DNA of 64,000 nt from NCBI GenBank assembly GCA_009777155.1, contig WRMK01000002.1, positions 213 through 64,212 of the forward strand. Reading direction: 5' to 3'. The position numbers and the translations under genes were made by a program. This document shows positions 5,079-61,035 of the stretch, one piece after another. The notes beneath the pieces were generated by a model. It did no database searches and had not been told where the DNA came from. It was given only the letters and a program-made list of their open reading frames with translations. Source of the stretch: Oscillospiraceae bacterium. Lineage in GTDB: Bacteria > Bacillota > Clostridia > Oscillospirales > Ruminococcaceae. The first letter of the stretch is position 1, and each line of letters begins with the position of its first letter.

Positions 5079-5720
5079 TCAGCCTGTCAGGAAAATTTTT
5101 TCTCTATGAAAATCTAAATAATTTTCCCTTCCGCATATCGGCAAATTTTCATAAACTTTTTCTTTTATTTGAAGTTTTTCCGCCGTTTCTTTTTTTAATT
5201 TTGCGGATAGCACCAATTCTTTTTTGTTTGAAAAAGTAATTAAACCTTTATCAAACAGCACATCATACAAGGGGGACAAAATAAAACCATTGTTGGTATC
5301 GAGCTTTTCAAAGCTATCAGACAAACACCACGGTTTTATGTGGCTCGCATACAGCAATCTTTTGTCGGACACTAAAGTTATCGGACACATCTTTAAGTTT
5401 TTCAACAATTCTTTTCTAAATTGCTGTTGCAAAGTCCTAACCTTAACAATTACATTTTTTTCTGTAATGAGGTCGTTCTTATATTCCTCCGGCAACATAT
5501 TCGTTATGTCATAATCCACAAGTGCGTATACACCGTCATCTACTCGTTTTATAGTTCCTTTTTTCATTTCCCGATACAAAACGCCTCTCAGCCCCGCTTG
5601 CCAATTTGAGGATTTTTTTGCATCGGGATAATATTTTTCGATTTCGTTGTATATTATCTGCCAGTTTATAATGCCGTTATACGTGGTCATTAAAGTTTTG
5701 ATTGCTTCTATTTTTGTCAT
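5079..5720 (-). CDS. HNH endonuclease (HNH_2-type) with an N-terminal winged-helix-like domain
   Basis: ASHIKPW...NGFILSPLYDVLFDKGLITF is the HNH_2 signature as I recall it. Confidence 0.65.
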   Translation of the reverse strand: MTKIEAIKTLMTTYNGIINWQIIYNEIEKYYPDAKKSSNWQAGLRGVLYREMKKGTIKRVDDGVYALVDYDITNMLPEEYKNDLITEKNVIVKVRTLQQQFRKELLKNLKMCPITLVSDKRLLYASHIKPWCLSDSFEKLDTNNGFILSPLYDVLFDKGLITFSNKKELVLSAKLKKETAEKLQIKEKVYENLPICGRENYLDFHREKIFLTG

Positions 5721-5767
5721 TTTTGTTCCTCAATATTTTCCTTCTTGGGCGATTGCTTGCCTTTAAG

Positions 5768-5791
5768 CCAAAATCCCACTTAAATAACAAA
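5768..5791. repeat. direct repeat copy 1 (duplicate of the uxuA 3' end)
   Basis: ccaaaatcccacttaaataacaaa compared with 6372-6395 ccaaaatcccactcaaataacaaa (23/24 identical). Confidence 0.8.
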
Positions 5792-6250
5792 ATGCTCTTG
5801 TGTTGCGGGTTTGAAAAAGTGGTTGTCTACTTGATGAGTTGTTATATAACTTTCAATGTTTTTAGGCTTAAGACAAGTAAAATTCGTGTAATCTTCGGTT
5901 TTAGGCTTAACTCTACTATTATACTCTGTCATCAAGTAGTCTATATGTTGCGATTGTTGCGGAAGCAGATAAGAATCTATCTTGCTATAAACTTCATATG
6001 AATGTTTCGCTATAGCGTTGCCGATTTTTTCGAGTATATTTCCAAAGGAGCTGTCAAAACTACGCGCAAAAGCCGAATGAAACGTGAATTCATCGCCCAA
6101 CTCAGCGATAAAGCAATTGTTGCGTTTGGTGTTTATGTTTCCTGACGGGTTGTTTTTGTCTTTTTTATATCTTGCTTCAAGTCCATCGGCAAAGTTTTTT
6201 ATATTTTCGTCTACAATTTTTTCTATTGCTTTTCTCTTGTTAGTTTCCAT
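5780..6250 (-). CDS. putative type II restriction endonuclease fragment (TdeIII-like?), probably C-terminally truncated
   Basis: Start trimmed to ATG 6250 (METNKRK). The FARSFDSSFGNILEKIGNAIAK block resembles the RE_TdeIII core as I recall it. Ends before an E-x-K region. Confidence 0.35.
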   Translation of the reverse strand: METNKRKAIEKIVDENIKNFADGLEARYKKDKNNPSGNINTKRNNCFIAELGDEFTFHSAFARSFDSSFGNILEKIGNAIAKHSYEVYSKIDSYLLPQQSQHIDYLMTEYNSRVKPKTEDYTNFTCLKPKNIESYITTHQVDNHFFKPATQEHFVI

Positions 6251-6345
6251 GATTATTCTCCATGTCCTTCCTGCACAAAAGTGCATTTGAAAGTATCGTT
6301 CCCTCACAGTGAAATTCCCCTGATTTGCACCGGTTCTTTCAAACT

Positions 6346-7413
6346 TTAAACCTTCCCCTTCCTCACAGCCTCCAAAATCCCACTCAAATAACAAACCCCC
6401 ATAGCCCTATCATACAACCCATACCCCGGCATCGCCACCTCACCCCACACCATTCTGCCGTGGTCGGGGCGGAGCGGGCCGTTGAAGCCGATGTCGTGAA
6501 ACGCCTTGATAATCTCGTACATATCGAGCGAGCCGTCCTCGGACAAATGCGCCGACTCGTCAAATTTCCTGTAGCCGAGGTGCTTAATATTGCGGACGTG
6601 GGCGAAGTGAATTTTGCCCTTCAACGAACGGATTATGTCGGGCAAATCGTTGTCGGGATTAGACCCGAGCGACCCGGTACAAAGCGTAATTCCGTTGCAC
6701 GGCGAATCGACCAACCCCGCAATCTTATGCAAATCGTCCTTGTTTTTGACAATCCGCGGCAACCCGAACACGCTCCACGCGGGGTCGTCGGGGTGGATAG
6801 CCATTTTTATGTTATATTTTTCACAAGTGGGCATAATCGCCTTGAGAAAATAGCCGAGATTTTCGCGCAATTTGTCTTCATCAACGCCCTTGTAAATCCC
6901 GAAAAGCTCCTTGTTACGCGCCATACGCTCGGGTTCCCACCCCGGCAACACAAACTCACCGCGCTTACTTTCAAGGCTTTTGAGCATGTCTTCAAAGTCC
7001 ATGTTTTCGATAATGTCGCCGTCGTATGAAAGCACCGTCGCGCCGTCCGGGCGGGGCTTCGCCAAGTCCGAGCGGGTCCAGTCGAATACAGGCATGAAGT
7101 TGTAGCAAACCAAGTCTATGCCACATTCGCCAAGGCGTTCAAGGGTTTTTATGTAATTGGAAATGTACAGCTCACGGCTGTTCCCGCCCGCTTTAATATC
7201 GTCGTGAATATTCACACTCTCAATGCCCGACAACTCCAACCCCGCGCCTTCAACGCGGGCTTTGAGTGCCTTGATAGCCGAAGTCTCCCAAACCTCGCCC
7301 GGCATGGTGTCATAAAGGGTCGAAATCACGCCCTTAACAGCGGGGACTTGTCGGATTTGCTCGGGCGTAACGGCGTCAAAGCCGTCCCCGAACCAGCGGA
7401 AGGTCATCTTCAT
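6346..7413 (-). CDS. uxuA: mannonate dehydratase
   Basis: MKMTFRWFG... N-terminus and overall length typical of UxuA. Confidence 0.9.
   Translation of the reverse strand: MKMTFRWFGDGFDAVTPEQIRQVPAVKGVISTLYDTMPGEVWETSAIKALKARVEGAGLELSGIESVNIHDDIKAGGNSRELYISNYIKTLERLGECGIDLVCYNFMPVFDWTRSDLAKPRPDGATVLSYDGDIIENMDFEDMLKSLESKRGEFVLPGWEPERMARNKELFGIYKGVDEDKLRENLGYFLKAIMPTCEKYNIKMAIHPDDPAWSVFGLPRIVKNKDDLHKIAGLVDSPCNGITLCTGSLGSNPDNDLPDIIRSLKGKIHFAHVRNIKHLGYRKFDESAHLSEDGSLDMYEIIKAFHDIGFNGPLRPDHGRMVWGEVAMPGYGLYDRAMGVCYLSGILEAVRKGKV
6372..6395. repeat. direct repeat copy 2 (inside the uxuA 3' coding end)
   Basis: Encodes CYLSGIL of UxuA; duplicated at 5768-5791. Confidence 0.8.
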
Positions 7414-11333: not shown

Positions 11334-11862
11334 GTAGGGGCGAACTCCGTTCGCCCGCATGTCGCACACGCCCTGTTTGCGGACGACCGTGCGCGGTCGT
11401 CCGCATATGCGCGGCTCCGCCGCCCCGTCTGTTAAATTACCGCCTTGTTATGACGTTTTTTGTTGTTGAAAATGTTTGGTGTAGGGAACGGTTCGTAACC
11501 GTTCCGTATGTTTATGCGGGTTCGTAATCGTTCCGTATATTTATGCGGGTTCGTAATCGTTCCGTATATTTATGCGACTTCGTAACCGTTCCGTATATTT
11601 ATGCGGCTTCGTAACCATCCCGAAAATCCACACGATTTATAGGACGGAACGGTTACGAACCGTTCCCTACATAACACCGCGCCGTGTTTCGGGTAATTTT
11701 GCGGACGACCGAGGGCGGTCGTCCCTACGTTTGATAAAACCGTGCAAATTTGCGCCAATTTACAAAATCGCCGAAACATGCGGAACGGTTTAGAACCGTT
11801 CCCTACAATAAAATTTACGAACGGCAGAAAATACCCATGTAGGGGCGGGCATTGCCCGCCCG
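11334..11862. repeat. REP-like hairpin cluster
   Basis: Multiple GTAGGG-headed hairpins with different stems (GCGAAC.., AACGGTT.., ACGACCG.., GCGGGCA..). Confidence 0.85.
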
Positions 11863-13383: not shown

Positions 13384-13437
13384 GGATATTTTCTCCTTGT
13401 TTTTTATTTTATCACGCTACGCAAATACCGCGCAAAT

Positions 13438-13585
13438 GTAGGGGCGCGCATTGCGCGTCCGTAATTTCACGCAAACCGCGTCCGTAATTTTACGCAAACG
13501 CGGGGTCTTTACGGACGGGCAATGCCCGCCCGCAAATCTACACAAACGCGGGGTCTTTGCGGACGCGCAATGCGCGCCCCTACAG
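13438..13585. repeat. REP-like hairpin cluster
   Basis: GTAGGGGCGCGCATTGCGCGTCCG and CGGACGGGCAATGCCCGCCCG units. Confidence 0.85.
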
Positions 13586-14755: not shown

Positions 14756-15994
14756 TTAGTCCCGTTCTAATTCCCCATTTATTATTAAATCCATCATAGC
14801 GTTTTCAAAATCTTCGCTACTTCCATATGTAATCCCTCTAAAAGTAATGCTTGTTAAATCAGGGCAAACGAAAAAAGCACGAGGATGAATTTTGGTTACG
14901 CCATCGGGAATAACAACACTTGTTAATGCCGTACGTTCAAACGCATAAACGCCGATTTTGGTTAGACCGTCCCCGAATGTAACGCTTGTCAGTTCTCTAC
15001 ACTCCTCAAAAGCCGAGTTACCGATTTCGGTTACACTATCGGGGATTACAACGCTTGTTAATGCCGTTTTCTTAAACGCATTTTCGCCGATTTCGGTTAC
15101 ACTATTTGGGATTACAATGCTTGTTAATGCCGTAAAGCTAAACGCACCATCGCCGATGCAAGTTACACTATCGGGAATAATAACGCTTGTCAGATTTTCG
15201 CACCACATAAACGCATCCCTCCCGATTTCGGTTACACTATTTGGGATTACAATGCTTGTTAATGCCGTAAAGCTAAACGCGCCGATGTAAGTTACACTGT
15301 TTGGGATTACAATGCTTGTCAATCCGGTTCCGTCAAACGCACCATCGCCGATGTAAGTTACACTATCGGGGATTATAACACTTGTCAATTCTTTGCAACT
15401 TTCAAACGCGGAGTTGCCAATTGAGGTTATACTATTTGGGATTACAATGCTTGTCAATCCGCTTCTGGCAAACGCGCGGTAGCCGATTTCGGTTACACTG
15501 CCGGGAATGACAACGCTTGTTAATGGAGTATTCCAAAACGCATAATCGCCGATGTAAGTTACACTGTTTGGAATATAGACATAGGTTATTCCGCTGTCTT
15601 CGAAAGCTTTCCCGCCGATGACCGTCACAGGCTCGTCGTCGATTTTTTCGGGTATGCGGACTTCTTCTGCTGTTCCTATATATTTCAGTATTTCAATGCC
15701 GTTTAACTCCTCGTTATATTCGTATTCAAAGTCATAAACAGGCGTTTCGTCCATATCGGGCGGGGGGTTGTTTCCCTGTGGGGTGAGGTCGGGGGTGGGG
15801 TCTTTTGCATTGTTGCACGGTGTGTCGCCTGCATTGCTGCCCGATGTGTCGCTTACGCTGTTGGTCGGTGTGTCGTCTGCATTGTTGCCCGGTCTGTCGT
15901 TTGCAAGGGTGTCCGCGTTAGAACCATCGCCGTCGCAAGCCGCCAAGCTTGCAAGCATGATAATCGCCATAAGTAATGCTAAAATCTTCCTCAT
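14756..15994 (-). CDS. BspA-type leucine-rich-repeat lipoprotein
   Basis: Lipobox LASLAAC; more than 10 repeats of LTSVVIPxSVTxIGxxAF. Confidence 0.8.
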   Translation of the reverse strand: MRKILALLMAIIMLASLAACDGDGSNADTLANDRPGNNADDTPTNSVSDTSGSNAGDTPCNNAKDPTPDLTPQGNNPPPDMDETPVYDFEYEYNEELNGIEILKYIGTAEEVRIPEKIDDEPVTVIGGKAFEDSGITYVYIPNSVTYIGDYAFWNTPLTSVVIPGSVTEIGYRAFARSGLTSIVIPNSITSIGNSAFESCKELTSVIIPDSVTYIGDGAFDGTGLTSIVIPNSVTYIGAFSFTALTSIVIPNSVTEIGRDAFMWCENLTSVIIPDSVTCIGDGAFSFTALTSIVIPNSVTEIGENAFKKTALTSVVIPDSVTEIGNSAFEECRELTSVTFGDGLTKIGVYAFERTALTSVVIPDGVTKIHPRAFFVCPDLTSITFRGITYGSSEDFENAMMDLIINGELERD

Positions 15995-25847: not shown

Positions 25848-26288
25848 GTAGGGACGACCGCCCCCGGTCGTCCGCAAATACCCGAAACATGGCGCGGTGT
25901 TCTGTAGGGGCGCGCATTGCGCGTCCGCAAATACCCGAAACGCGGCGCGGTGTTCTGTAGGGGCGCGCATTGCGCGTCCGCAAATTCCCGAAACGCGGCG
26001 CGGTGTTGTGTAGGGAACGGTTCTTAACCGTTCCGCAAACTCGCACGACCTTATAAACGGAACGGTTAAGAACCGTTCCCCGCATTAAAATGCCAATAAA
26101 AATTTTCACGACAGGAAAAATATCATGTACGTAGGGGCGAACTGCGTTCGCCCGTGAATCCACACACCTGCCGAACCCCACACAAACGGTCGGGCATGGA
26201 AGCCCGACCCTACGTTGAAAAACCCCACAAACAACCGAAAACCCACGCAACCGCATAAACCCACGGGCGGGCAATGCCCGCCCCTACA
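25848..26288. repeat. REP-like hairpin cluster (includes three tandem 54-nt units)
   Basis: GTAGGGGCGCGCATTGCGCGTCCGCAAATACCCGAAACGCGGCGCGGTGTTCT repeated, plus other stem types. Confidence 0.85.
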
Positions 26289-28265: not shown

Positions 28266-28266
28266 C

Positions 28267-28455
28267 TAATGCAGAAATAAGAATGCAGAATGCAGAAATT
28301 ATTTCTAATGCAGAAATGAGAATGCAGAATGCAGAAATGAAATCACTTTGCAATTGACAATGATTTTATTTTGTGCTATAATTAAATAACGCAGAAATAA
28401 ATAAAATTACAACTACTTGAATACTTAATTATTTCTGCATTCTGCATTCTGCATT
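28267..28455. repeat. AATGCAG-armed hairpin cassette whose loop carries a consensus promoter
   Basis: Left arms (AATGCAG)n AAAT at 28267-28339; right arm ATTTCTGCATTCTGCATTCTGCATT at 28429-28455. Confidence 0.75.
28354..28382 (+). promoter_or_regulatory. perfect consensus promoter of the GH13-PurC gene
   Basis: TTGACA-17 nt-TGcTATAAT. Confidence 0.7.
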
Positions 28456-28478: not shown

Positions 28479-30623
28479 ATGTCCTACTGGTTTGAAAACG
28501 CTGTAATCTATCACATCTACCCGCTTGGCTACTGCGGTTGCCCCAAAGATAATCCTTACTTGGAAAAGCCGGGTAAACCCGCGGGCGAAAGTCCTATTCT
28601 GAAAGTCTTAGAGCATATCCCGACTATTAAGAAACTCGGATTCAACGCCCTCTACATAGGCCCGGTGTTTGAATCCACCCGCCACGGGTACGACACCGCC
28701 GACTTCTTGAAAATCGACTCGCGACTTGGCACAAACGCAGACTTCGCGCGTGTTTGCAAGGAGTTGCACAAGAACGGTATTCGGGTAATTCTCGATGCCG
28801 TGTTCAATCATGTCGGGCGGGATTTCTTCGCCTTCAAAGACCTGCGCCAAAATCGGGGCGGCGGCAAATACGCAGGCTGGTTCCACACTCGCGGCGGCAA
28901 TTCCAATTACAACGACGGCTTTTTTTACGAGGGTTGGGAGGGGCATTACGAGTTGGTAAAGCTGAATTTGCAGAACCCCGAGGTGAAAAACCACTTGAAA
29001 GAGGCGGTGACGACTTGGTACAAGGAATACGGCATTGACGGCTTGCGGCTTGACGTCGCATACAGCTTGGACTTGGGCTTTCTGCGGGAACTCCGTAGCC
29101 ACTGCAAAAGCTTAGAACCCGACTTTTGGCTGATGGGCGAGACTTTGCATGGCGATTACAACGTATGGATGAACCCCGAAATGTGCGACAGTGTCACAAA
29201 TTATCAGTGCTACAAGGGGCTGTATTCGAGCTTCAACGACCTCAATATGTTCGAGATTGCACATTCTTTCAACGACCACTTTATGAACAAATACAGGGGC
29301 AAAAAACTCTATTGTTTTGTGGATAATCACGATGTTGGGCGAATTGCGTCGGTCTTGAAGAACCCCGCGCATTTGTTGCCGCTGTATGCTTTAATGTTCA
29401 CCATGCCGGGCATACCGGGGGTTTATTATGGCAGCGAATACGGCTTCAAAGCCGCCAAGAGCCAAGGCGACGACGCCCTGCGCCCCGAATTTTCTTTGAA
29501 GACCGTCAAGGACACTGAACTCACCCGCGCAATTGCGAAATTGGCGCATGCTCATGCAGGCTTAAAGCCGCTTTGGGACGGCGATTATCGGCAAGTCGTG
29601 TTGAATAATCAGTACTTTGCTTTTGCACGTTCGGCGGGCGGCGAGACGGTCTACACGCTGATTAATGCGAGTGCGGCGCCTGTCGGGTTTAACTTGGGCG
29701 GCGCGGGGAATTATGCTGATGTGCTGACGGGAGAAGTGTTTAATATAAGTCGCGAGGTGAAAGTTGCGGCGTGTAGTGCTATGATACTGGCAGTCACTGA
29801 TGCGCCTGTGAAAGTTTCTGCGCCGATTCAAAAGGTAGCGAAAACTCCCGAACCTGCAAAAGTTTCTGCTCCTGTGCAAGAAGTACCGAAAACTCCCGCG
29901 CCCGCAAAAGTTTCCGAACCCGCGAAAACCGCGCCTGTTCTGATTGCGCGCGGTAAGACCAAGGACGTATTCGACCTCGGCGACGGAACTTTCCTGTTCA
30001 AGTTCAAGGACAACGCCACGGTCAACGACGATGGGCAATTCGACCCGGGCGGTAACACCGTGGGCCTTACAATCGGCGGCTTGGGCGAGGCGAATTTGAA
30101 GCTTACCAAGCACCTTTTCGAGAAAATCAACGCCGCCGGATACCCCACTCACTTTGTCAGCGCGAATCTCGAGAAAGCCGAGATGACCGTTCGCCCCGCT
30201 GTGGTGTTCGGCAAGGACGGCAAGGGCTTGGAGGCCGTCTGCCGTTTCCGCGCAACCGGCAGTTTCATTCGGCGTTACGGGCAGTATGCCAAGGAGGGCG
30301 ATGCGCTGAACGGCTTGGTGGAAATTACCCTGAAAGACGACCAACGCGGCGACCCGCCGATTACCCAAGACACCCTCGTGACACTCGGCATTTTAACCAA
30401 TGACGAGTACCGAATTTTGTCGGAACTCACAAAGGGTATTTCGCACTTGTTGAAATTTATCTTCGCCGAAAAGGGCTTGGATTTGTATGATTTGAAGTTG
30501 GAATTTGGCAAGGTTGACGGTAAAATCGTGCTGATTGACGAGATTGCGGGCGGCAGTATGCGGGTCTACAGGGACGGCAAGGGGCTGACGCCGTTTGAGC
30601 TTACGGAAATAATTACACGATAA
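28479..30623 (+). CDS. GH13 alpha-amylase-family enzyme fused via a Pro/Ala/Lys linker to a SAICAR-synthetase (PurC)-like domain
   Basis: GH13 regions DAVFNHVG, GLRLDVA, MGETLH and VDNHD. C-terminal GKTKDVF...FKFKDNAT...PTHFV...GSFIRRYG...LKDDQRGDP...KLEFG...LIDEI matches the PurC layout. Confidence 0.8.
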   Translation: MSYWFENAVIYHIYPLGYCGCPKDNPYLEKPGKPAGESPILKVLEHIPTIKKLGFNALYIGPVFESTRHGYDTADFLKIDSRLGTNADFARVCKELHKNGIRVILDAVFNHVGRDFFAFKDLRQNRGGGKYAGWFHTRGGNSNYNDGFFYEGWEGHYELVKLNLQNPEVKNHLKEAVTTWYKEYGIDGLRLDVAYSLDLGFLRELRSHCKSLEPDFWLMGETLHGDYNVWMNPEMCDSVTNYQCYKGLYSSFNDLNMFEIAHSFNDHFMNKYRGKKLYCFVDNHDVGRIASVLKNPAHLLPLYALMFTMPGIPGVYYGSEYGFKAAKSQGDDALRPEFSLKTVKDTELTRAIAKLAHAHAGLKPLWDGDYRQVVLNNQYFAFARSAGGETVYTLINASAAPVGFNLGGAGNYADVLTGEVFNISREVKVAACSAMILAVTDAPVKVSAPIQKVAKTPEPAKVSAPVQEVPKTPAPAKVSEPAKTAPVLIARGKTKDVFDLGDGTFLFKFKDNATVNDDGQFDPGGNTVGLTIGGLGEANLKLTKHLFEKINAAGYPTHFVSANLEKAEMTVRPAVVFGKDGKGLEAVCRFRATGSFIRRYGQYAKEGDALNGLVEITLKDDQRGDPPITQDTLVTLGILTNDEYRILSELTKGISHLLKFIFAEKGLDLYDLKLEFGKVDGKIVLIDEIAGGSMRVYRDGKGLTPFELTEIITR

Positions 30624-30740
30624 TGCAGAAATAAAAATGCAGAATGCAGAAATGTCTTTAATTATAGGCGGTGCGCCGTGCGAGACCCGCTTAAAAATTA
30701 AATTATTTCTGCATTCTGCATTTTGCATTTTTATTTACTT
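30621..30740. repeat. AATGCAG-armed hairpin element
   Basis: aatgcagaatgcagaaat...atttctgcattctgcat arms around a loop of about 50 nt. Confidence 0.8.
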
Positions 30741-30859: not shown

Positions 30860-30945
30860 GGTTTCACCTCCTTTCGGTTAATGTAGAAATGATAATGCAG
30901 AATGCAGAAATGGCGTGGGGTTTGCGGTTGTGGGGAATTTTTGTT

Positions 30946-31740
30946 GTAGGGGCGCGCATTGCGCGTCCGTGATTTTACGCAGAACGTGGGGGTTGCGGTT
31001 GATGTTGTTTTGTCTGTAGGGGCGCGCATTGCGCGTCCGTGGTTTTATGCGCCGTGTATTTTCCTGTTGTGAAAATTTTTTGTTGTAGGGAACGGTTCTT
31101 AACCGTTCCGATGATGAAACCGTGTAAAATTTCGCAAAATATAAATCCGCGCAAACCTACGCAAATTACAGGCTTGCGGAAACTTGGCGGAACGGTTAAG
31201 AACCGTTCCCTACATAACACCGCGCTGTGTTTCGGGGGGTGCGGCGTTTCCGTGGGATTTACGGGCGAACGCAGTTCGCCCCTACGTTCATGACGTTTTT
31301 TATGTGGTTGAAAATTTTTATTGTAGGGAACGGTTCGTAACCGTTCCGAAAGTTTCAACGACCCCATAAACGGAACGGTTATGAACCGTTCCCTACATAA
31401 CACCGCGCTGTGTTTCGGGGGGCTTGCGGCGTTTCCGTGGGATTTGTGGGCGTGTGGATTGCATGTTTGTGTGGGTTTGCGGTCGTGTGGATTGCGCGTT
31501 TGTGTGGATTTGCGGGCGTGTGGGATTTGCGGGCGAACGCAGTTCGCCCCTACATTCATGACGTTTTTTATGTGGTTGAAAATTTTTGCAGTGCGGACGC
31601 GCAATGCGCGCCCCTACAATAGGTGGGATTTGCGGCGTTTCCGTGGGATTTTGCGAACGACCGGGGGCGGTCGCCCCTACAATCGGTGGGTTTTGCGGCG
31701 TTTCCGTGGGATTTACGGACGCGCAATGCGCGCCCCTACA
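30946..31740. repeat. largest REP-like hairpin cluster (about 15 units)
   Basis: GTAGGG-headed hairpins with GCGCGCA, AACGGTT, GCGAAC and ACGACCG stems in both orientations. Confidence 0.9.
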
Positions 31741-32602: not shown

Positions 32603-32735
32603 TTTTTACCTCCGATTTTTATAATGCAGAATGCAGAATGCAAAATGCAGAAATAATTTAATTTTCAGGTGGTTTTCCAACGGATATGTACGTAATATTT
32701 TTATTTATTTCTGCATTCTGCATTATTATTTCTGC
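32603..32735. repeat. AATGCAG-armed hairpin element (55-nt conserved loop)
   Basis: Near-identical to 33455-33590. Confidence 0.85.
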
Positions 32736-33454: not shown

Positions 33455-33590
33455 TTTTTAATGCAGAATGCAGAATGCAAAATGCAGAAATAATTTAATT
33501 TTCAGGTGGTTTTCCAACGGATTTGTACATAATATTTCAATTTATTTCTGCATTCTGCATTCTGCATTCTGCATTTCTTTTTGGTTTTCA
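33455..33590. repeat. AATGCAG-armed hairpin element (55-nt conserved loop)
   Basis: (AATGCAG)n AAATAATTTAATTTTCAGGTGGTTTTCCAACGG...TTATTTCTGCATTCTGCATT. Confidence 0.85.
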
Positions 33591-40900: not shown

Positions 40901-41231
40901 TGAAGATTCCGAAGAATACGAGTTGTCCATCTTGTTTGAATGGAACGACACCAAAGACCCCGGAGAACTGCTCCTCATGCGGGTTAACGCTTACGTTTCA
41001 CTCGAAGATGAAACAGGGAATTGGATAGTGCAACCGGGCGTAAACCCCGGGCTTGACTGGAGCGAATTAAAGGCGATACTGAAATCCAACGGCGGCAAAT
41101 TCTACAGCACGTTCAGCGAGCCCGTCCCGACCGGCCTTGCCGACATGCGCGGCTTCACCGTAATCGCAATCACGCTAATCGCAGTCTCGGCGGGGCTGTT
41201 CATAAGCACTCGCCGCAGGCGAGTTAAATGA
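37917..41231 (+). CDS. 1104-aa secreted, highly acidic, aromatic- and Cys-rich cell-wall-anchored orphan protein
   Basis: Signal peptide MKKRLISLLTAFAVILSL; four N-terminal repeats of about 95 aa (W-x-W-D/E-N); CxC/CxxC-rich module; C-terminal PVPTG + TM + RRRRVK sorting signal. Confidence 0.8.
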   Translation: MKKRLISLLTAFAVILSLGGMPAIHAQSGDAYWRDYFPDTFGEADFTYGSEDYITWRWDNIDLVDDIIDFLLSEGYAEHSDRFSDGSNQTEEYTEVTKYPIIPDYDISFSIDYYDGDGNWRMAVCYYDAEYAEWFKYFTDTVGKAPDDFTFNSEGNHRWEWNNVDFRTQLHSFFLSDGLTKLTENTLTYDNVYPQKTIVTKDNDEFRLTYQVGDQDGTTVYTYIYGEGGENYWRYYFSPVADNDPSPFIYTNEDDIRWAWDNANYVAEIAWFLSMQGYYLVGKDFYETGGTDVYTDVFKDGDTFKIYYNNGNGYEDIYIYEYGRAAEWKGYFLSATYSAPDFFVYVDENNICWEWEDKNWVSDLGTFLQLQGYRQIDFGSNPFGSSYEVTQVDKYYDTFRITYHPGNDTREWFTFGWYCQPCLGGDHEDCVIDGCWCGCGGGGGGDDICDACYFGQHAWCSLYEGTSCACGCFICQPCRDEEHEVCEFKLYEARCDCWCNDNPVYFRPPYLRSGMDYYLLDIKQLLDDDDDVFKIYGVGLTLLATDIDSFDGSFKFMGLDDKDDVTFELEIDFDDCDVTALEEGMYQIEYTQDERIFSLEDWCYRRDLIINCDSGSFMVLAVWFLDEDGDFIGSPLFVEDPCGGNGGSTCLCDGIMSSFMETFATLSGDFVDLGYALYTLDFIFGYYLDWAVYMADYLFEEYAEAIVDLFGEDCIFYDPCLDLINCVQCKYLVLYFMYDDIGELSLFDYFVLMEGIAVPLFEAIEGVNAGYACEFCERFPCMCQGLMNALGAIISDVTSEPVPLVSLWGNLGSLTWLLGQWIFIPDYMTYAYGLEIATLIGGCEWDYDDVEQKMVVINNPCDPHTCIACDYYAVVDEISVWEPVPSIGWAWVLEMNADAYAKLQEFVLEPILNAIDNVNANFDDDNFSLDFIRGSFEYFISEEMFMSNFYDINPAEIEAAFTVLHEAVDSEWAVKHSEFYTDYGANNFISLIVAFEDSEEYELSILFEWNDTKDPGELLLMRVNAYVSLEDETGNWIVQPGVNPGLDWSELKAILKSNGGKFYSTFSEPVPTGLADMRGFTVIAITLIAVSAGLFISTRRRRVK

Positions 41232-41280
41232 GAATGCAGAATGCAAAATGCAGAAATAAGCGGCATACAAAGTTTATTTC

Positions 41281-41487
41281 CGACGGAGTTCGCCCCGCAC
41301 GCACAAATCCCACGGGCGGAATTCGCCCCGCACGCACAAATCCCACGGGCGAACGCAGTTCGCCCCTACAACATTAAAAATTATTAACGACATAAAAATT
41401 TTTTCAGCGTAGGGGCGGGTCACCACGGTTCGCCCGCAAGGCCCGCAAGACTTGGGCAGACGGACGCGCAATGCGCGCCCCTACATA
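41281..41487. repeat. REP-like hairpin cluster / inverted doublet
   Basis: cgggcgaacgcagttcgcccctaca - AT-rich spacer - gtaggggcg...; block repeated at 42470-42582. Confidence 0.85.
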
Positions 41488-41506
41488 GGGTTTCATGGAC
41501 TTAGTG

Positions 41507-41792
41507 GGGGCGGTGGGTCGGCATGGGGCAGGGGGTCTGTGTCTGCTCTACCTCAAAGAGCCACCAGCCCGCCACACAAGCTGTTCAGACTCCACTTTCT
41601 CGACATGAAACTTATCTCCTCACGACTTAATAAGTTTCATCTACATAAAAAGTCTGCACTCGCAAATGGGTATCTGCTACGTGATAACGGTTCGGCTCGA
41701 GAAGGTTAGACTTTATCAAGCGCAAAAGCGGGCGTGTGGCTCTTTGCGGTAGAGCAGACACAGACCCCCTGCCCCCTGCCGACCCACCGCCC
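41507..41792. mobile_element. long-arm hairpin element, copy A (about 286 nt)
   Basis: Self-complementary arms of about 60 nt around a core shared with copies at 49941-50275 and 52714-53034. Confidence 0.7.
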
Positions 41793-41844
41793 GACTACCA
41801 CCTCACATATTCACTTAATTAAATAGTAGAAAGGATTTAGAAAC

Positions 41845-48700: not shown

Positions 48701-49905
48701 CCCTGCCACGCGTTCTGAGTCTTGCAAAACTTCCGCTCCCTTATGAGTATTACAAAGTCGCCCGCCCCCGAAAACGTCTTCTCTGCAATTGCCAAAAGCC
48801 GCTCGTCATCGGGATTTTCAGCGTTATCGGCGGGTTTAAGGTCACATAGCAGGGCGAATTTTATGTTGTCTGAATTATTTTTAAGTCGTGCCTCCCGTAA
48901 TTTTCCAAACCCGCTGACAACGTCCTTTTCGGAGGCAATCAGGGTCGAGATTACGCAGATAGTCTTGGCGCGGGGGGGAACTTTGCCCTTGAGGGCAAGC
49001 CGCGGAATCAGCCCGTCGCGCTTGACGGATTTTATGGCAATATAATCCACAAGCGGCTTGAGTATAGCAAGGCAGGGTACGAACAACAACGCCGCCCAAG
49101 CCCAGCTCGAAACATCCGCGTAACACCACGCCAGTACCGCCGTAAGCAGGGCGGTAGGCAGAAACAACGCCGTCAAGTACGCCCGCACCCGCACAAACGG
49201 GAACACGCGGCGGTAGTCTTTCGCGATGATTTCACCTACATGCAGGTTCTCCGCCCTGCTCCGATTCATGTACTCGTTGGACAACCGCGCCTCATCAATC
49301 CCGGTCGCAATCGCAATCTCAGAGGTTTTGCGGCGATAATCGGCGCGGGTCTCCTCGGTCAATTTGGGATACAAAGTATCCGCCGAATACAACAGTTCCA
49401 CAGGGTTCAACGCCGCGCAAATCCGCTCAGGCTCTAAGTCGGTCAAGGCACTGAGTTTCTCCCCGAAGTTATCGCCATTTCCGACACCATTAATCGCATC
49501 GGAAATCACGCAGTACTTCGCCTGCCATATCAGGCTATCAATATCCATCGACGTCAGCGGCTTGACCGCCGCCAATCGCGACACCACATTCACAATCATC
49601 TCGGCGGAAATCTCCCGCATTGAGCCTACAACCCCGCCCAAGACGGGGGTTTTAACGCCGTTTGCAGAAAGGTACATATTTATATAAAAACCTTTGTGGG
49701 CGCGGATAAGCATGCCGAGTTCCTTCTCAAGCATGCGTTTCTCGCCCGGCAAAGGCGCGGCCTCGCGGGATTTATTCGCCGATTGCGCCGATTGCGCTAA
49801 TTTGCGCCGCAACTTCCTAAGCGGCGAGTACAACCCACTCACAGGCAGTACCTTCCACTGCATAGCGGCAATCTCGGTAATTTTTTCTGTGTTATCTTTT
49901 AACAA
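42733..49905 (-). CDS. cyclic beta-1,2-glucan synthase-like protein (GT84 + membrane region + GH94-like phosphorylase domain)
   Basis: 2390 aa; ALDYDTVP GT motif, multiple TM helices, C-terminal GGDWCDGYN...GGQYTHAAVW GH94-type motifs; TTG start behind AAGGAG. Confidence 0.8.
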   Translation of the reverse strand: MLKDNTEKITEIAAMQWKVLPVSGLYSPLRKLRRKLAQSAQSANKSREAAPLPGEKRMLEKELGMLIRAHKGFYINMYLSANGVKTPVLGGVVGSMREISAEMIVNVVSRLAAVKPLTSMDIDSLIWQAKYCVISDAINGVGNGDNFGEKLSALTDLEPERICAALNPVELLYSADTLYPKLTEETRADYRRKTSEIAIATGIDEARLSNEYMNRSRAENLHVGEIIAKDYRRVFPFVRVRAYLTALFLPTALLTAVLAWCYADVSSWAWAALLFVPCLAILKPLVDYIAIKSVKRDGLIPRLALKGKVPPRAKTICVISTLIASEKDVVSGFGKLREARLKNNSDNIKFALLCDLKPADNAENPDDERLLAIAEKTFSGAGDFVILIRERKFCKTQNAWQGHERKRGAILAFAELLRGGVSEARKCGFRAVYGSRSALHDIAYIMALDYDTVPLMDSVSELVGIALHPLHKHKGIIAPRITTTLDSYLKTGFSRAMAGNGGCAGASSYDCFSGEMYQDCFGEGIFTGKGLINVDMLLDKCSGFREERILSHDILEGGCLGVVYAGDIEFNDSFPDTSAAYFKRQHRWLRGDLQNFRYIFRRNFSPLTRWKLLDNVRRAVTPLFIFLCFAIAAVRPNPARLDLLALVGLLAITMPFLMGFFPSVIRGRRFAFYRRFYSPVISQTKQLLRQCLMEIMFAVKNALISADALVRTLWRMLITKKHLLDWNTASSLEGLKSGVSHILLAEIVSAALLMAALVNGNMLVVLLGVIFMCLLPLTLYIDRTSGKTTPKFTKAMRAELLQNARKMWAFYTDYVTAEHNFLPPDNVQYSPVYRVSARTSPTNIGMYLLSCAAARTFGFITKDEFVSRVEKTVGTVERLEKWHGNLMNWYETHELKVISPFVSSVDSGNFVCCLIAVKQALRECNSSEELIARIEKIAAETNLKPFFNKARNLFSIGFDLDSQSLSRHSYDLIMSEARMLSYYAIATGQADKKHWRSLGRVMGRSGSYAAPVAWTGTMFEYYMPELLLGSKEGSMEYEALRFSLHCQQKRGRETGLPFGMSESGYYAFDEALNYQYKAHGVQTVGLKGGLNKERVISPYSSFLSLGIDPIASYNNLVKLEKLGVSHSKYGFYEAADFTKHRVGSGYAVVKSHMAHHVGMSMAGVCNALHGGKLQKLFLSDPDMKRAEELLEEKIMAGEPVLATPEWQEEQSYRMNSTEFTEFSCADIQVNPLSNGLLTVLTSNIGLSMSLYGKKSGFYKTVDLLNPRGTLFGFVEGENIMPFLNHPCVVAPEKSDKSDKVEKSAVFFQNSTEHYLNCRNLRLGLQTYLHCDKAVEIRRFAAENLGNKKRQLNLAVYLEPALARFRDIAAHPAFMDLFLKLHYDAENCLIIAKRKERTSDAETVMAIGFRDKREFTFSFNREEVISRNGGIISSLEKAAALETNTTSVPCPCVFIKVDFPLDAYGKSDTDLMICYGASEREVLALAADIRRGEAEKPCEEIISPLVRETMYGRFAARILPAVVYAPVAKTSAVQSENKKAVMKNNLGLNALWELGISGDYPIVLFEFKDGIKGGVVSASGADAIVEMKKALWLCGVEFDLVMLCENEAQINLVRSLQKEIGTEIFVVCGTSTNPALINLIRAAACYTQRSDELLPKSKAKVKSREFLPILPCGKPESGKLENRFEGEKFIIENSPDLPWCNILASSRFGTLLSDRALGFSWALNSRENKLSPWNNDLRADNKGEMLLLKFEGRAIYDLIDGSRATFAPNRAVYHGIVGNLHAKTTVNVFEKGMGKEIVLELENRSKKPKCFEVAYYVEPVLGVTRENARLIIPTLQVKDNTLIFKNPANGVFSGAMMMYSDNSDCSFMTGRQAFFEGDWNAEKSVNPAHDIIGAVVIKIELPPKHTDKIRFILAFTKNTKRPLTMKEALRNKRSAPLIEAVPIDTGDERLNALYSYWLPWQVIGGRLWARTGFYQNSGAYGYRDQLQDCLAAMLLRPEIAKRQILRACTAQFVEGDVLHWWHDMETHNKGVRTRYSDDLLWLPFVTAEYVDFTKDYDILETKIHYADGPLLADGEKEKYIEVGITDFKESVYLHCKRAIDKAYAKGSHGLLLMGGGDWCDGYNNVGLKGRGESVWLSMFYVMLCKNFAKTAMMMGDTEYSADLKRRSAEITAAIDASAWDGGHYLRAFYDNGKEMGAAKNDRCKIDLLPQAFATLAEMPDEHRKSAALRSAEEQLCDTRNRLVKLFTPPFARGRSWQEPGYVESYPEGVRENGGQYTHAAVWLAMAYLKAAESSRETCPHDNKTCYKAKTAGSSRENCPNDNKACNKAKAAELLRLLAPFGRGGEYKTEPYYMAADIYTNSRAYGRGGWSIYTGSAGWYFWVLGEVFGGGE

Positions 49906-49940
49906 AGCAAGTCTCCTTGAGCAATATTATCTTATGAACC

Positions 49941-50275
49941 CACTACATACAGCAAAATTTTTGCAAATGTGAAGTGGCAGTCGGGGCAGAGGGGGGTAGT
50001 AGGGGTCTATGTCTGCGCCGCCGCTTTGAAACGCACGCCCGCCGCACAAACCGTTCAATCCCCGCAACATCGACAGCGAGTTTTCCCCTTGGCGACCTAT
50101 GGGTTCGCTATACATTAAAAGTCCGCCCCCATAAGGGGTTCTTCCATCTACAAAGTCTTTGGCACGAGAGAGTTAAGTTTTAGCAAGTGTAAACGCGGGT
50201 TCGTGCAGTTTCAAAGCGGCGGCGCAGACATAGACCCCTACTACCCCCCTCTGCCCCCCCCTCAAGTCCATGAAG
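49941..50275. mobile_element. long-arm hairpin element, copy B (outer flanks inverted relative to the core)
   Basis: See findings. Confidence 0.7.
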
Positions 50276-50350
50276 TCCCCTATATTAACTATATTCTACC
50301 CATTATTTGGATTTAATTTCAAAAAAATTAAAATTTTTTTCAATAAAGGG

Positions 50351-50379
50351 TTGAAATAGTGTTAAAAATGTTGTATAAT
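50351..50379 (+). promoter_or_regulatory. sigma-A-type promoter ahead of the 216-aa gene and the atp operon
   Basis: TTGAAA-17 nt-TATAAT. Confidence 0.6.
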
Positions 50380-50415
50380 AACCTTATGTGATTTATCGAA
50401 AGGACTAAAAAATTC

Positions 50416-51066
50416 ATGACCGGTAGTAAATCTGCACTCGTGGCGACTGTTGTGGTGTTTATTTTGGCTGTTGCGGCGGCCGTCTTTGCGTTTTGGTACA
50501 TCGGGGGGGACTCGCAGTCGGGCGGCGACATCGCGAGTATACCCGACGACGATGTTTTTGAACCCACGGCTGACGAGCGGGCCGAAATGACCGACGCCGC
50601 CGATAGGTTAATCAAAAATAATCACAGAGTGGTACAATTATTCCTCACCCAAGGCCTCCCCGCCCTGCCCGAACCCTACGGCAACCGCCCCGAAAACGAT
50701 ATTTATTATGTAGACAGCGACGAGTATTTAACCCTCAACGATATATCCACCTTGGTTTTCGATACCTTCTCGGGGGCAGAGGCCGAGCGGATTATGGACG
50801 GCACCACCAATTTCGGCAACCCGTTCTTCCGTGGCGCGGTCTATTACGATAAGGACGGCAGTCTCGGCATACACATGAACTTTCAACCGTATGAGGACTA
50901 CCCCGTCAACTGGACCAACCCCTCGTATCAGTTAAGCCCGGTGTCCGCAGATGAATGTCTGTTGACCCTCGAGTTGTCAATCGACAACCAACGGGCGACT
51001 TTCGTCCGTACTATGTCCAAGCGCGGCAACCACTGGGAGCTCGACCGCATTATCCTCAATGAATAA
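50416..51066 (+). CDS. membrane-anchored hypothetical protein (216 aa)
   Basis: N-terminal TM helix; overlaps the atpZ start by 8 nt. Confidence 0.6.
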   Translation: MTGSKSALVATVVVFILAVAAAVFAFWYIGGDSQSGGDIASIPDDDVFEPTADERAEMTDAADRLIKNNHRVVQLFLTQGLPALPEPYGNRPENDIYYVDSDEYLTLNDISTLVFDTFSGAEAERIMDGTTNFGNPFFRGAVYYDKDGSLGIHMNFQPYEDYPVNWTNPSYQLSPVSADECLLTLELSIDNQRATFVRTMSKRGNHWELDRIILNE

Positions 51067-51361
51067 ACGCGACAACCCGATGTCGGCGTACATTGTGGCA
51101 AGTCACATTGCATTCGTTGTGATTACGCCGCTCCTGCTGTTCATAGGCGGCGGGGCGTGGCTCTGCGACAAGTTGAGCCTGCCCGACTGGACTAAACTGC
51201 TGATGGTACTTGTCGGCGTGGCGGTGATGATATTGTCGCTGATTTCGTACTTGATGAGACTGATTAAGATGTACGACGGCGATTCAAAGGGTGTTGAAAA
51301 ACAAAAACCTGCCTTTAAGGGCGAGAGTGACTACTACTATGAAAACGATATCGAACCGTAG
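51059..51361 (+). CDS. atpZ: AtpZ/ATPase_gene1-like small membrane protein
   Basis: Two TM helices with a GGGAWLCDKLSLPDW motif; sits at the head of the atp operon. Confidence 0.6.
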   Translation: MNKRDNPMSAYIVASHIAFVVITPLLLFIGGGAWLCDKLSLPDWTKLLMVLVGVAVMILSLISYLMRLIKMYDGDSKGVEKQKPAFKGESDYYYENDIEP

Positions 51362-51761
51362 AGTTAAATCCGAAGCGGAAATAATCGCACTTGAAGAACT
51401 GAAACAGATGACCCCCTTCTTCCTGATTGCAAACGGCGCAGTGCTACTAATCAGCGGAATCCTCGGCTTATTTATAAAGGTAGACTGGGGCGTTTTCACG
51501 GGGTTGCTTATCGGCAACATAGCGGCGGCGGTAAACTTCTACCTAATCGGCTTCACCACAGGCCGCGCAATCAGGCGCAGGGACACAAAGCGGGCGCGGA
51601 GCTACTTCGCATTCAGCTACGGCATGCGTATGCTGGGGATTTTCGGAGTGTTTGCAGTATTGATTACGTTCGGGCTAATCAACCCGATAACGGCGATAGC
51701 CCCACTGCTCTACCCGAGTGTGTATTATAAGATTCGGGCGGTGTTTAATAAGTCGGTTTGA
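51339..51761 (+). CDS. atpI: ATP synthase protein I
   Basis: Four hydrophobic helices, position before atpB; start trimmed to ATG 51339. Confidence 0.6.
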   Translation: MKTISNRRVKSEAEIIALEELKQMTPFFLIANGAVLLISGILGLFIKVDWGVFTGLLIGNIAAAVNFYLIGFTTGRAIRRRDTKRARSYFAFSYGMRMLGIFGVFAVLITFGLINPITAIAPLLYPSVYYKIRAVFNKSV

Positions 51762-51791
51762 CAACATTTAACAATGTCCGTTTAATTTATA

Positions 51792-51882
51792 CGGGCGAAC
51801 GCAGTTCGCCCCTACATGGCGCAAGTCTACTGTGTTGTGTAAAATTCCTGAGCGTAGGGGCGGGATTTCCACGGTCCGCCCG
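51792..51882. repeat. REP-like hairpins
   Basis: cgggcgaacgcagttcgcccctaca; gtaggggcgggatttccacggtccgcccg. Confidence 0.8.
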
Positions 51883-51918
51883 CACCTCAAAGTCGCTCGA
51901 CCGTGAAAGGTATTAACC

Positions 51919-52680
51919 ATGAGAAAATTTACAACGATTATCACCCTCTGCCTCGTGCTGACCTTGGCGGCGTGTGGGTTTGAACCCACAGGCGTCGTTT
52001 CGGAGGGTGGCGAGACCCTGCCGCTCCCCGAACCTCGTGACGTCTCGGACGCTCCCGAAACTCCCGATGAACCCATTGAACCCGACGAACCCATTGAACC
52101 CAACGAACCCGATGAACCCACTGAACCCGCAACCACAGGTGCAGTCGCAATCGCAACATACGAGCGCGGTATCCTAACCGACACATCCTTTGAAAGCGAC
52201 TACCTCGGGCTTAGATTCACCCTGCCCCCCGGATTCGTAATGGCGACACCGGAGGAAATCCTCGACATGATGGATTTGGGCGCGGCCGCCTTCGATTTAG
52301 ACCAAGATATAGTGGATTACGCGGCACTCACAGCGACTTACGACATGGTGGCGTTCAGCCCCGCCGGCTTCCCGAACGTCATTGTCCTAACCGAGCTTAT
52401 GCCGATTAGCGACATAACGGTAGAGCAGTATTTTGACAACGTCAAGGTTATGTTTGCATCAACCGGCCCGGATTTCCGGTTTGGCGACTTAGGAACGATA
52501 GAAGTCGCAGGCGAGACCTACACAAAACTCCCCGCAAGCCTTGAAATGCTCGGCGAAACGGTTTTGCAGGATTATATCATGAGGAAACATGGCGACAGAA
52601 TGGTCGGATTCATACTTTCATACACAGACGAGACCGCAGACGAAGCCGAATTATTAATGGCGGCGTTTGAGAAATATTAA
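51919..52680 (+). CDS. lipoprotein with a PExP-rich linker, inserted between atpI and atpB
   Basis: Lipobox LTLAAC; (PDEPIE)n low-complexity linker. Confidence 0.7.
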   Translation: MRKFTTIITLCLVLTLAACGFEPTGVVSEGGETLPLPEPRDVSDAPETPDEPIEPDEPIEPNEPDEPTEPATTGAVAIATYERGILTDTSFESDYLGLRFTLPPGFVMATPEEILDMMDLGAAAFDLDQDIVDYAALTATYDMVAFSPAGFPNVIVLTELMPISDITVEQYFDNVKVMFASTGPDFRFGDLGTIEVAGETYTKLPASLEMLGETVLQDYIMRKHGDRMVGFILSYTDETADEAELLMAAFEKY

Positions 52681-52713
52681 CAATAGACGATTGCGAAACT
52701 CGCCGTTTAGAGG

Positions 52714-53034
52714 TCATGGACTTGAGTGGGGGCAGAGGGGGGTAGTAGGGGTACGGCGGCACAAGGAATTGCCGGCCCGCCACACAAACTCATCTAATTC
52801 CACTTCCTCGATTGCGACCTTACAAGTTCACGACTTGACAAGTTTCATCTATTTGAAAAGTCTGCACTCGCAAATAGGCTCGTGCTACGTGATAACGGTT
52901 CGGCTCGAGAAGGTTAAGCTCTATCAAGCGTAGAACGCGGGCGTGCGATTCCTTGTGCCGCCGTACCCCTACTACCCCCCTCTGCCCCGACTGCCACCTC
53001 ACATTTGCAAAAATTTTGCGGTATGTAGTGAGTT
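52714..53034. mobile_element. long-arm hairpin element, copy C
   Basis: Arms ggggcagaggggggtagtaggggtacggcggcacaagg / ccttgtgccgccgtacccctactacccccctctgcccc; core about 90% identical to copy A. Confidence 0.7.
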
Positions 53035-53081
53035 TCGCAATCTCTTAAAATATTAAAAATTAAAGGAGGATTCCTATTCGC

Positions 53082-53826: not shown

Positions 53827-53861
53827 TATATATCCGGACGATTGCAAAACCTACTGTTTTG

Positions 53862-53960
53862 CGGACGGGCAATGCCCGCCCCTACAATATGTAGATGAAA
53901 AATAAAGCCGAGCCTCCCCATGTAGGGGCGCAGCATTACTTCGCAAGCGATGCGCGTCCG
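53862..53960. repeat. REP-like hairpins (composite block also at 60763-60846)
   Basis: cggacgggcaatgcccgcccctacaatatgtagatg is shared by both loci. Confidence 0.85.
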
Positions 53961-54005
53961 TGAGTTTCGCAATCGGCTATACATATATCGCAAAGGAGGA
54001 GTACT

Positions 54006-60715: not shown

Positions 60716-60762
60716 GGGTTAATACTGTTTTATTATAGGAGATTGCGAAACTCGTCGTCTAA

Positions 60763-60846
60763 CGGACGGGCAATGCCCGCCCCTACAATATGTAGATGGA
60801 CGGCAAAACCAAATCGCCATATGTAGGGGCGCGCATTGCGCGTCCG
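60763..60846. repeat. REP-like hairpins
   Basis: cggacgggcaatgcccgcccctaca; gtaggggcgcgcattgcgcgtccg. Confidence 0.85.
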
Positions 60847-61035
60847 TGGGATTTTGACCTTGCAATAAGCCACGCTTTTGAAGACATAAAAGAGGGCAGA
60901 ACCTATCCGGCAGATGAAGCCCTTAACGAGATACGCAGAGAACTTAACCTTAAACACATTGATACAGAGCAGTTAGTTTAAGCTATTGAAAACATAATTC
61001 CGCACACCCGTGCAGAAAGGGATTGCTGAAATATT

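Follow-up and report, generated by a model that had tools for sequence, protein, structure and literature searches.

Correia elements of Neisseria combine a directional core with alternative inverted-repeat end variants, which occur in symmetric or asymmetric pairs, and these elements are substrates of RNase III (PMC2649163). In C. difficile, the leader switch controlled by RecV is a 154-bp segment that is invertible between 21-bp repeats, and RecV also acts at cwpV (PMC5386303). The doublets of repetitive extragenic palindromic (REP) sequences that are known as REPINs can take two configurations (PMC3337134). Here we describe a family of hairpin-shaped intergenic repeats from a 64,000-nt stretch of Oscillospiraceae bacterium DNA (contig WRMK01000002.1, hereafter the window), in which three copies, A, B, and C, each contain a core that lies between two long inverted arms and two flanks, F1 and F2. 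In copy B (49937-50286), the core is reversed relative to the flanks when compared with copies A and C. We propose, with moderate confidence, that recombination in the palindromic arms left B as a fixed structural isomer and not as a functional on/off switch.

Anatomy of the repeat and the reversed core of copy B

The three copies in the window share a plan consisting of an F1 flank, a G-rich arm, a directional core, a complementary arm, and an F2 flank. The total length is ~330-360 nt, with arms of 50-68 nt and a core of ~155 nt (175 nt lie between the arms in B). Copy A (41485-41808, plus strand) has the standard F1/F2 order, with F1 at ~41485-41507, arms at 41508-41572 and 41728-41792 (65 nt, 94% complementary, 155 nt apart), a core at 41573-41727, and a short F2 at 41793-41808. 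It lies upstream of the rubrerythrin gene (rbr) and ends 36 nt before its ATG at 41845. Copy C (52708-53034, plus strand) has the same order, with F1 at 52708-52726, arms at 52725-52780 and 52937-52992 (56 nt, 93% complementary, 156 nt apart), a core at 52781-52936, and F2 at 52989-53034; 47 nt separate the end of C from the start codon of atpB (ATG at 53082).

In copy B, the F2 module is present as its reverse complement at the left end (49937-49982, minus strand), where it faces a minus-strand gene of glycoside hydrolase family 94 (GH94). It is followed by the left G-rich arm (49983-50032), which is the perfect 50-nt inverted-repeat partner of the right C-rich arm (50208-50257; 100% complementary, 175 nt apart). 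The core between them (50033-50207) has the plus-strand polarity of A and C, and it takes in short imperfect inner-stem extensions and GCCCGC/GCGGG closing pairs. The F1 module is found at the right end as its reverse complement (50258-50286, minus strand; extended form ...CATGAAGTCCCCTATA).

The longest perfect arm run is 50 nt in B, 28 nt in A, 41 nt in C, and 42 nt in a further copy, D, and in the predicted RNA fold of B the arms pair as one unbroken stem. The outer 23 nt of the left arm of B (GGGGCAGAGGGGGGTAGTAGGGG) are common to C and D and recur with few differences in a fifth copy, E; copies D and E are described below. Copies A, B, C, and E all have the same arm/F2 junction (…CAGTC joined to GGGG…), and F2 itself is 16 nt long in A and 46 nt long in B, C, and E. 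The longer form contains a near-perfect palindrome, GCAAAAA(T)TTTTGC (GCAAAAATTTTGC, at 49952-49966 and 53005-53019), which is kept in B, C, and E and is lacking from the short F2 of A. This palindrome could be the site of a dimeric regulator.

A previous sequence-only reading of this DNA had reported that the flanks of B are on the opposite sides from those of A and C and present as reverse complements. Every sequence that it quoted was recovered in place, and the order of the flanks was confirmed by motif searches. The F1 13-mer TCATGGACTTGAG is present to the left of A (41493-41505, with a one-base deletion) and to the left of C (52714-52726), and its reverse complement is present to the right of B (50261-50273). 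The F2 sequence GACTRCCACYTCACAT was found to the right of A (41793-41808) and of C (52989-53004) and as its reverse complement to the left of B (49967-49982), so there are three matches versus 0.07 expected by chance. A 31-nt continuation of F2, CACATTTGCAAAAATTTTGCNGTATGTAGTG, occurs only at 53000-53030 (plus strand) and 49941-49971 (minus strand), with a chance expectation of 0.00.

The polarity of the cores was compared in alignments made after removing the palindromic closing pairs. In the direct orientation, 99-102 of 152 positions in the B core were identical to those in the A, C, and D cores (z = 6.6-8.4, 500 shuffles), whereas the reverse orientation gave z values of -0.3 to 0.7 (500 shuffles). 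These values agree with the plus-strand polarity that had been assigned to the B core. Together with the motif positions, they confirm that this core is flipped relative to its flanks when compared with A and C. The element at B was also found where it had been placed, in a block (~49937-50286) that is slightly wider than the earlier limits of 49941-50275 when both flanks are aligned to L006, a relative that lacks the element.

The same arrangement could be an assembly artefact if the B core had been placed arbitrarily between perfect inverted repeats. B has the longest perfect run of the family (50 nt), De Bruijn graphs with k <= 50 cannot orient such a loop, and the window derives from a draft contig of 64,571 nt. 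However, the perfect palindrome stops just outside the 50-nt run on both sides, and therefore any k > 50 resolves copy B. In addition, an exact search with the full-length GH94 protein, with M at its TTG start, retrieved L017, a MEGAHIT (k141) contig of 7487 nt from ENA assembly ERZ27257348. On L017, the complete GH94 gene is followed by F2, by the arm, and by 138 nt from the beginning of the B core, all with the polarity found in the window. A query with the GH94 N-terminus for other assemblies gave no match. Because this independent assembly repeats the F2-arm-core junction, misassembly of B is largely refuted, and we regard it as extremely improbable.

Insertion, lineage restriction, and the origin of copy B

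The relative L006 (a 308-kb contig with ~50% amino acid identity in a neighboring protein) has the same gene order as the window, namely GH94 on the minus strand, a 280-nt AT-rich spacer, a 220-aa gene, atpZ, atpI, and atpB. In its syntenic GH94-atp region and atpI-atpB junction, there is no element and no long inverted repeat. Homology to L006 ends at ~49936 to the left of B and resumes at ~50290 to the right, so the inserted block at B contains both F1 and F2. At the level of sequence, these comparisons show that the elements at the B and C positions are insertions. F1 and F2 were not found away from the arms in the ~71 kb formed by the window and contig L014. Because they occur only beside arms in the sequence read, the flanks are considered part of the element, and the idea that they are an independent repeat that merely abuts the arms does not hold. 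No empty F1-F2 target site was found in the window or the recovered loci (a match at 22161 is within a coding region and is attributed to chance), and no direct repeat is common to the sequences just outside F1 and F2 in copies A-E.

Reading frames are inconsistent from copy to copy and no open reading frame (ORF) is conserved, so the copies are non-coding. The ~250-aa genes beside C and beside D were considered as a candidate element-associated protein and rejected, as they are unrelated lipoproteins. Core-pattern scans of 185,579 GTDB species-representative genomes (two scans) and of JGI metagenome contigs (one scan) gave chance matches only (L005, L011-L013). A viral-contig scan and blastn searches against plasmids and phages gave no matches, and a protein database queried with the concatenated six-frame translation of three copies returned nothing above threshold. 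The host is a spore-forming Firmicute (it has DpaA/B, SpoIIE, and SpoIID genes) that is seen in gut-type metagenomes. The family has five known dispersed non-coding copies (A-E) with terminal inverted repeats, and its presence differs at orthologous sites from the distant relative L006 (~50% amino acid identity). Judged by these features, it behaves like a lineage-restricted, non-coding, non-autonomous, hairpin-shaped intergenic repeat of the type of miniature inverted-repeat transposable elements (MITEs) and Correia elements.

Copies D and E are on L014, a whole ENA contig of 10,092 nt that matches window positions 50287-52849 at 100% identity and then diverges inside the core of C. Copy D (L014 2421-2725) has F1 on both sides (TAGAGGTCATGGACTTGAG…CTCAAGTCCATGAAACCCTCTA) and contains a 67-nt inverted repeat (94%). 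It is followed by a REP sequence and then by unrelated chromosomal genes (a helix-turn-helix protein, an Rce1-like protein, a hibernation factor, and OTCase). Either the element underwent a real rearrangement that joined the left flank of C to D and then to unrelated genes, or the repeat caused a chimera in the assembly. Copy E (L014 9840-10092, minus strand) is partial. Its core-arm-F2 junction is as in A and C, its F1 side is off the contig end, and its F2 is ~44 nt upstream of a 420-aa gene. There are, then, at least three arrangements, F1/F2 (A and C), F2/F1 (B), and F1/F1 (D), with E matching A and C on the F2 side.

Inversion within an element is not sufficient to produce the F1/F1 arrangement of copy D. 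Copy D is also the starting point for an explanation that needs no inversion, in which the mobile unit is a symmetric hairpin (arm-core-arm, or F1-arm-core-arm-F1 as in D) and F2 is a separate end module, or is derived from the target, and can attach to either end; B would then have gained F2 at the other end. This explanation is consistent with the full symmetry of D (F1 on both sides, 67-nt inverted repeat), with the variable length of F2 (16 nt or 46 nt), with the merging of the distal end of F2 into a motif of the REP doublets, which also recurs in the genome, and with the several combinations of end variants shown by Correia elements. Against it, F2 was never found apart from an arm in ~71 kb, the arm/F2 junction shared without change by four copies (A, B, C, and E) points to descent from one ancestor and not to several independent attachments, the empty site in L006 contains neither F1 nor F2, and D is possibly an assembly hybrid. 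We therefore consider attachment of F2 to either end rather unlikely. A chromosomal inversion between two standard copies was rejected as the origin of B, as it predicts F1/F1 and F2/F2 junctions and not F2/F1; such an event could be the origin of D.

Comparison with the other copies shows that B is a mosaic. Its F2 and outer arm (49937-50006) are identical at 67 of 70 positions to the reverse complement of the right side of C, and its outer arm and F1 differ from the reverse complement of the left side of C by one mismatch and one gap in 39 positions. The inner arms of B are unrelated to those of C and partially resemble those of A. The B core is ~65% identical to the other cores, compared with 80-94% identity among the A, C, and D cores (65-95% between copies overall). 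A simple flip of a C-like copy is disfavored because the core and flanks would then match C equally. Exchange at the arms between different copies appears to fit the mosaic structure of B better, and the arms of B, which are the most perfect of the family (50-nt run), fit a recent arm-to-arm exchange.

Closely spaced long perfect inverted repeats invert the segment between them without a dedicated invertase, and the inverted repeats of plastids undergo a similar flip-flop. Inversion mediated by inverted repeats was reportedly described by Bi and Liu in 1996 in plasmid studies in E. coli. In the elements described here, exchange at the arms can pair in either orientation because every arm is complementary, in reverse, both to its partner and to the outer arms of other copies. 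The event could have been an intramolecular crossover or a template switch from one arm of a copy to the other, or else gene conversion or a double crossover involving two copies that are oppositely oriented in the chromosome. Each of these events would re-join the core to the flanks in the opposite polarity and would uncouple the orientation of the core from that of the flanks. The proposal in the sequence-only reading that recombination between the inverted arms flipped the core is the simplest way to produce the arrangement of B. We infer that this recombination was an evolutionary event rather than a programmed, reversible switch.

Gene context and tests of switching

The GH94 gene beside B (minus strand) likely starts at a TTG at 49905 that is preceded by an AAGGAG ribosome-binding site. 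Two strong promoter-like sites are present near B, and both are outside it. The candidate promoter of the atp operon (50351-50379, plus strand; TTGAAA-17-TATAAT, 11/12) is conserved in the element-free L006, and the other site (50322-50293, minus strand; TTGAAA-18-TAGAAT) would read through B into GH94. Copy C is inside the atp operon, between a gene for a 253-aa lipoprotein and atpB, whereas in L006 atpI is directly followed by atpB. The lipoprotein gene (51919-52680, no Pfam match) and copy C together split the atp operon between atpI and atpB.

If an element is transcribed, it would add a GC-rich hairpin of 50-65 bp to a 5' leader or an intercistronic RNA. For copy C, this hairpin is bound to matter if transcription from the conserved atp promoter continues through the operon; for copy B, it would be part of the GH94 leader if GH94 is transcribed from the site at 50322-50293. 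In that case, A and C would carry the core in the sense direction and B in the antisense direction. By analogy with Correia elements, the hairpin could act as a determinant of RNase III cleavage or of stability.

The copies could instead be a structured RNA gene or a cis-regulatory leader in which the arms are the closing helix and the flank swap reflects two transcription polarities. Both strands are predicted to fold very stably (z of about -12 to -13), the arms differ between copies yet are complementary within each copy, and F2 is 35-47 nt from the start codon in four copies. However, the stability is equal on both strands, and it is therefore attributed to the inverted repeat in the DNA. 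RNAalifold analysis of four cores found covariation in the arms only and none within the core. In an Rfam 15 gathering-score search of the whole window, the sole match was a tRNA, and a search of the B and C regions at E<=1 gave no match. In addition, nothing similar was found in the 185,579 species-representative genomes, and a perfect duplex of 50-65 bp is atypical of functional RNAs and typical of DNA repeats. A role as a structured RNA is, in our view, very unlikely.

The sequence-only reading had suggested that B may be an inverton, or invertible promoter or leader switch. Such an active switch would reversibly invert the core in living populations and change the leader RNA of rbr, atpB, or GH94, through a recombinase encoded elsewhere (as for RecV in C. 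difficile) or through frequent RecA-dependent or RecA-independent exchange between the arms. In support of this idea, perfect 50-nt inverted repeats surround a short intergenic segment of 175 nt directly upstream of genes (77 nt from the GH94 start), B is between the candidate minus-strand promoter at 50322-50293 and the GH94 start, both core/flank polarities are present in the family, and metagenome contigs break at or within elements. Leader switches of similar length are known in Firmicutes (154 bp between 21-bp repeats; PMC5386303).

Other data argue against switching. No locus was found in two orientations among the consensus assemblies recovered, in which A (3/3), B (2/2), and C (2/2) all share the orientation in the window. 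The sequence of copy A does not differ between the window, L003, and L004, the core-to-F2 side of C (its right half) is identical in L002, and L017 repeats the arrangement of the F2-to-core side of B. The contig breaks fall at repeat boundaries, as expected of any repeat. The earlier reading had called for a search for a nearby invertase, and none was found: there is no recombinase domain among the Pfam hits of the larger ORFs of the window, and the genes called on the 7 kb of L014 beyond the window have no recombinase family listed. Recombinases of the RecV type can act in trans. A sigma-70 consensus scan found no promoter at a conserved core position in either orientation, a consensus scan for intrinsic terminators found none in the A, B, and C cores on either strand, and F2 contains no acceptable -35/-10 pair. 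The arm sequence is not common to all copies, as the arms of A differ from those of B, C, and D. Finally, simple flipping explains neither the B core, which is far more diverged from C than are its flanks, nor the existence of a copy with F1 on both sides.

From these results, the reversed core/flank polarity of the earlier proposal stands, with exchange at the arms as its simplest route, and its inverton part lacks a second orientation, a recombinase (in ~71 kb), and a promoter or terminator in the core. The switch hypothesis is without positive support beyond static isomerism, and an active inverton at B is unlikely.

A near-identical strain, represented by the ERZ27257348 contigs, departs from the window almost only within cores. 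L017 differs from the window by 12 substitutions at 50097-50163 (67 nt; 8 of the 12 are G:C to A:T) versus one single-nucleotide polymorphism in the 7.2-kb GH94 gene, and L014 differs by 10 positions at 52850-52921 (72 nt) versus none in the 2563 nt before them. In L017, the variant B core is a sister of B and is not copied from A, C, D, or E. These differences fit an exchange of core segments between copies; collapsed paralogues and mutation focused on the hairpin loop are other possible sources.

A broader possibility, which we consider decidedly unlikely, is that the family consists of mobile, multicopy, invertible leader cassettes, whose arms let the cores flip (spontaneously or by a recombinase acting in trans) and swap between copies. 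If so, the leaders of the rubrerythrin, ATP synthase, GH94, and other operons would be switched or diversified together, and the core-focused strain differences would be the footprint of that activity. Any such switch would mean that an uncultured gut Firmicute has invertible leaders that form a dispersed family. If instead B is a fixed isomer, long palindromic termini can free the internal orientation of a repeat from its flanks, and inverton scans that rely on the same flanks with a flipped middle between paralogous copies can mislead. The family would also be a hairpin repeat that is undescribed and restricted to one species, located in leaders of core metabolic operons and within the atp operon, where its RNA duplex of 50-65 bp should affect processing or stability.

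Several points weigh against the interpretation of B as a fixed isomer within a MITE-like family. No recombination event is seen directly, and consensus assemblies, which are blind to low-frequency or minority-orientation switching, cannot exclude it. Five copies are known, one of which is partial, and copy D may be in part an assembly chimera of C and another copy. Judging from how assemblers behave, such a chimera would need at least 140 nt in common in a k=141 graph, and this would imply F1 on the left of D too. Membership of the MITE class is incomplete, as neither a target-site duplication nor a cognate transposase was found. In addition, F2 is the gene-proximal flank, 35-47 nt before the start codon, in all four copies that could be scored (A before rbr, B before GH94, C before atpB, and E before the 420-aa gene). 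This position hints at function or selection, for which a purely passive repeat offers no explanation, but with ~3 informative cases the regularity is not statistically significant.

Neighboring repeats and known systems

Other features of the window were noted. A gene for an HNH endonuclease and a fragment of a TdeIII-type restriction endonuclease (204 aa, aligned to positions 1-147 of a 242-position profile) are present at 5079-6394 between sugar-acid catabolism genes, and this pair may be a decayed restriction system. Tandem repeats of 195 nt with 69-77% identity are found at 14884-15575, in a BspA-type leucine-rich-repeat gene (ORF 14756-15994, minus strand). An AT-rich repeat of AATGCAG units (…AATGCAGAATGCAGAAAT) recurs at gene ends (28266-28338, 30620-30653, 30878-30911, 32621-32654, 33458-33491, and 41224-41257) and is unrelated to the GC-rich palindromes.

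REP-like palindromes headed by GTAG are dense in this genome and fall into several classes (for example TGTAGGGGCGCGCATTGCGCGTCCGT, TGTAGGGAACGGTTCTTAACCGTTCC, GTAGGGACGACCGCCCCCGGTCGTCC, and GTAGGGGCGAACTGCGTTCGCCCGT). In the window, they are found at 13437-13584, 25896-25997, 30945-31056, 31583-31740, 53851-53975, and 60752-60863, often as inverted, REPIN-like doublets bracketed by GATTGCGAAACTC / GAGTTTCGCAATC. The GAGTTTCGCAATC motif, an outer inverted-repeat motif of these doublets, also brackets copy C (52689-52701, minus strand, with its partner at 53030-53042 on the plus strand). Five tandem 29-nt units, GGTTCGTAA[CT]CGTTCCGTATATTTATGCG, at 11461-11634 derive from a single REP class. 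In the relatives L006 and L009 (20 kb each), long inverted repeats of the REP-like kind were not found.

The elements resemble the REP doublets and REPINs mobilized by RAYT proteins, which are hairpin-forming inverted doublets with a spacer and are lineage-restricted, and their arms contain GTAGTAGGGG, which resembles the REP head TGTAGGGG. They differ in that their arms are not short REP palindromes (50-68 nt), their spacer, the core, is conserved (65-95%) and directional, and their length is about three times that of a REPIN. The true REP doublets of this genome also differ from them in appearance.

Like the RecV switches at flgB and cwpV, the elements are from a Firmicute and place a segment of ~150-200 bp between inverted repeats close upstream of a coding region; the regulatory effect of those switches needs no promoter in the segment, and one recombinase serves more than one switch (PMC5386303). 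The RecV switches have 21-bp repeats, both of their orientations are seen in culture, and their tyrosine recombinase is identified, whereas neither a second orientation nor a recombinase was found here. The elements described here are, in addition, multicopy, with conserved outer flanks and with arms that differ between copies. Inversion between inverted repeats in general, by RecA-independent template switching or homologous recombination, is the mechanism proposed for B, but it is a phenomenon of genome instability and not a family of elements.

The elements differ from Correia elements (CREE, or nemis) of Neisseria in having arms of 50-68 nt compared with 26 nt, a total length of ~350 nt compared with 105-155 nt, F1 and F2 flanks that are unrelated sequences rather than minor variants, a Firmicute host, and apparently few copies. 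The Correia traits of a TA target duplication, an IHF site, and an end-generated promoter were not detected in them. The two families share a non-coding, dispersed, intergenic character and terminal inverted repeats around a conserved directional core; both are often found 5' of genes with the prospect of hairpin co-transcription, both combine their end variants in various ways, and the presence of both differs between related genomes (PMC2649163). By this comparison, the MITE/Correia class is the closest known kind.

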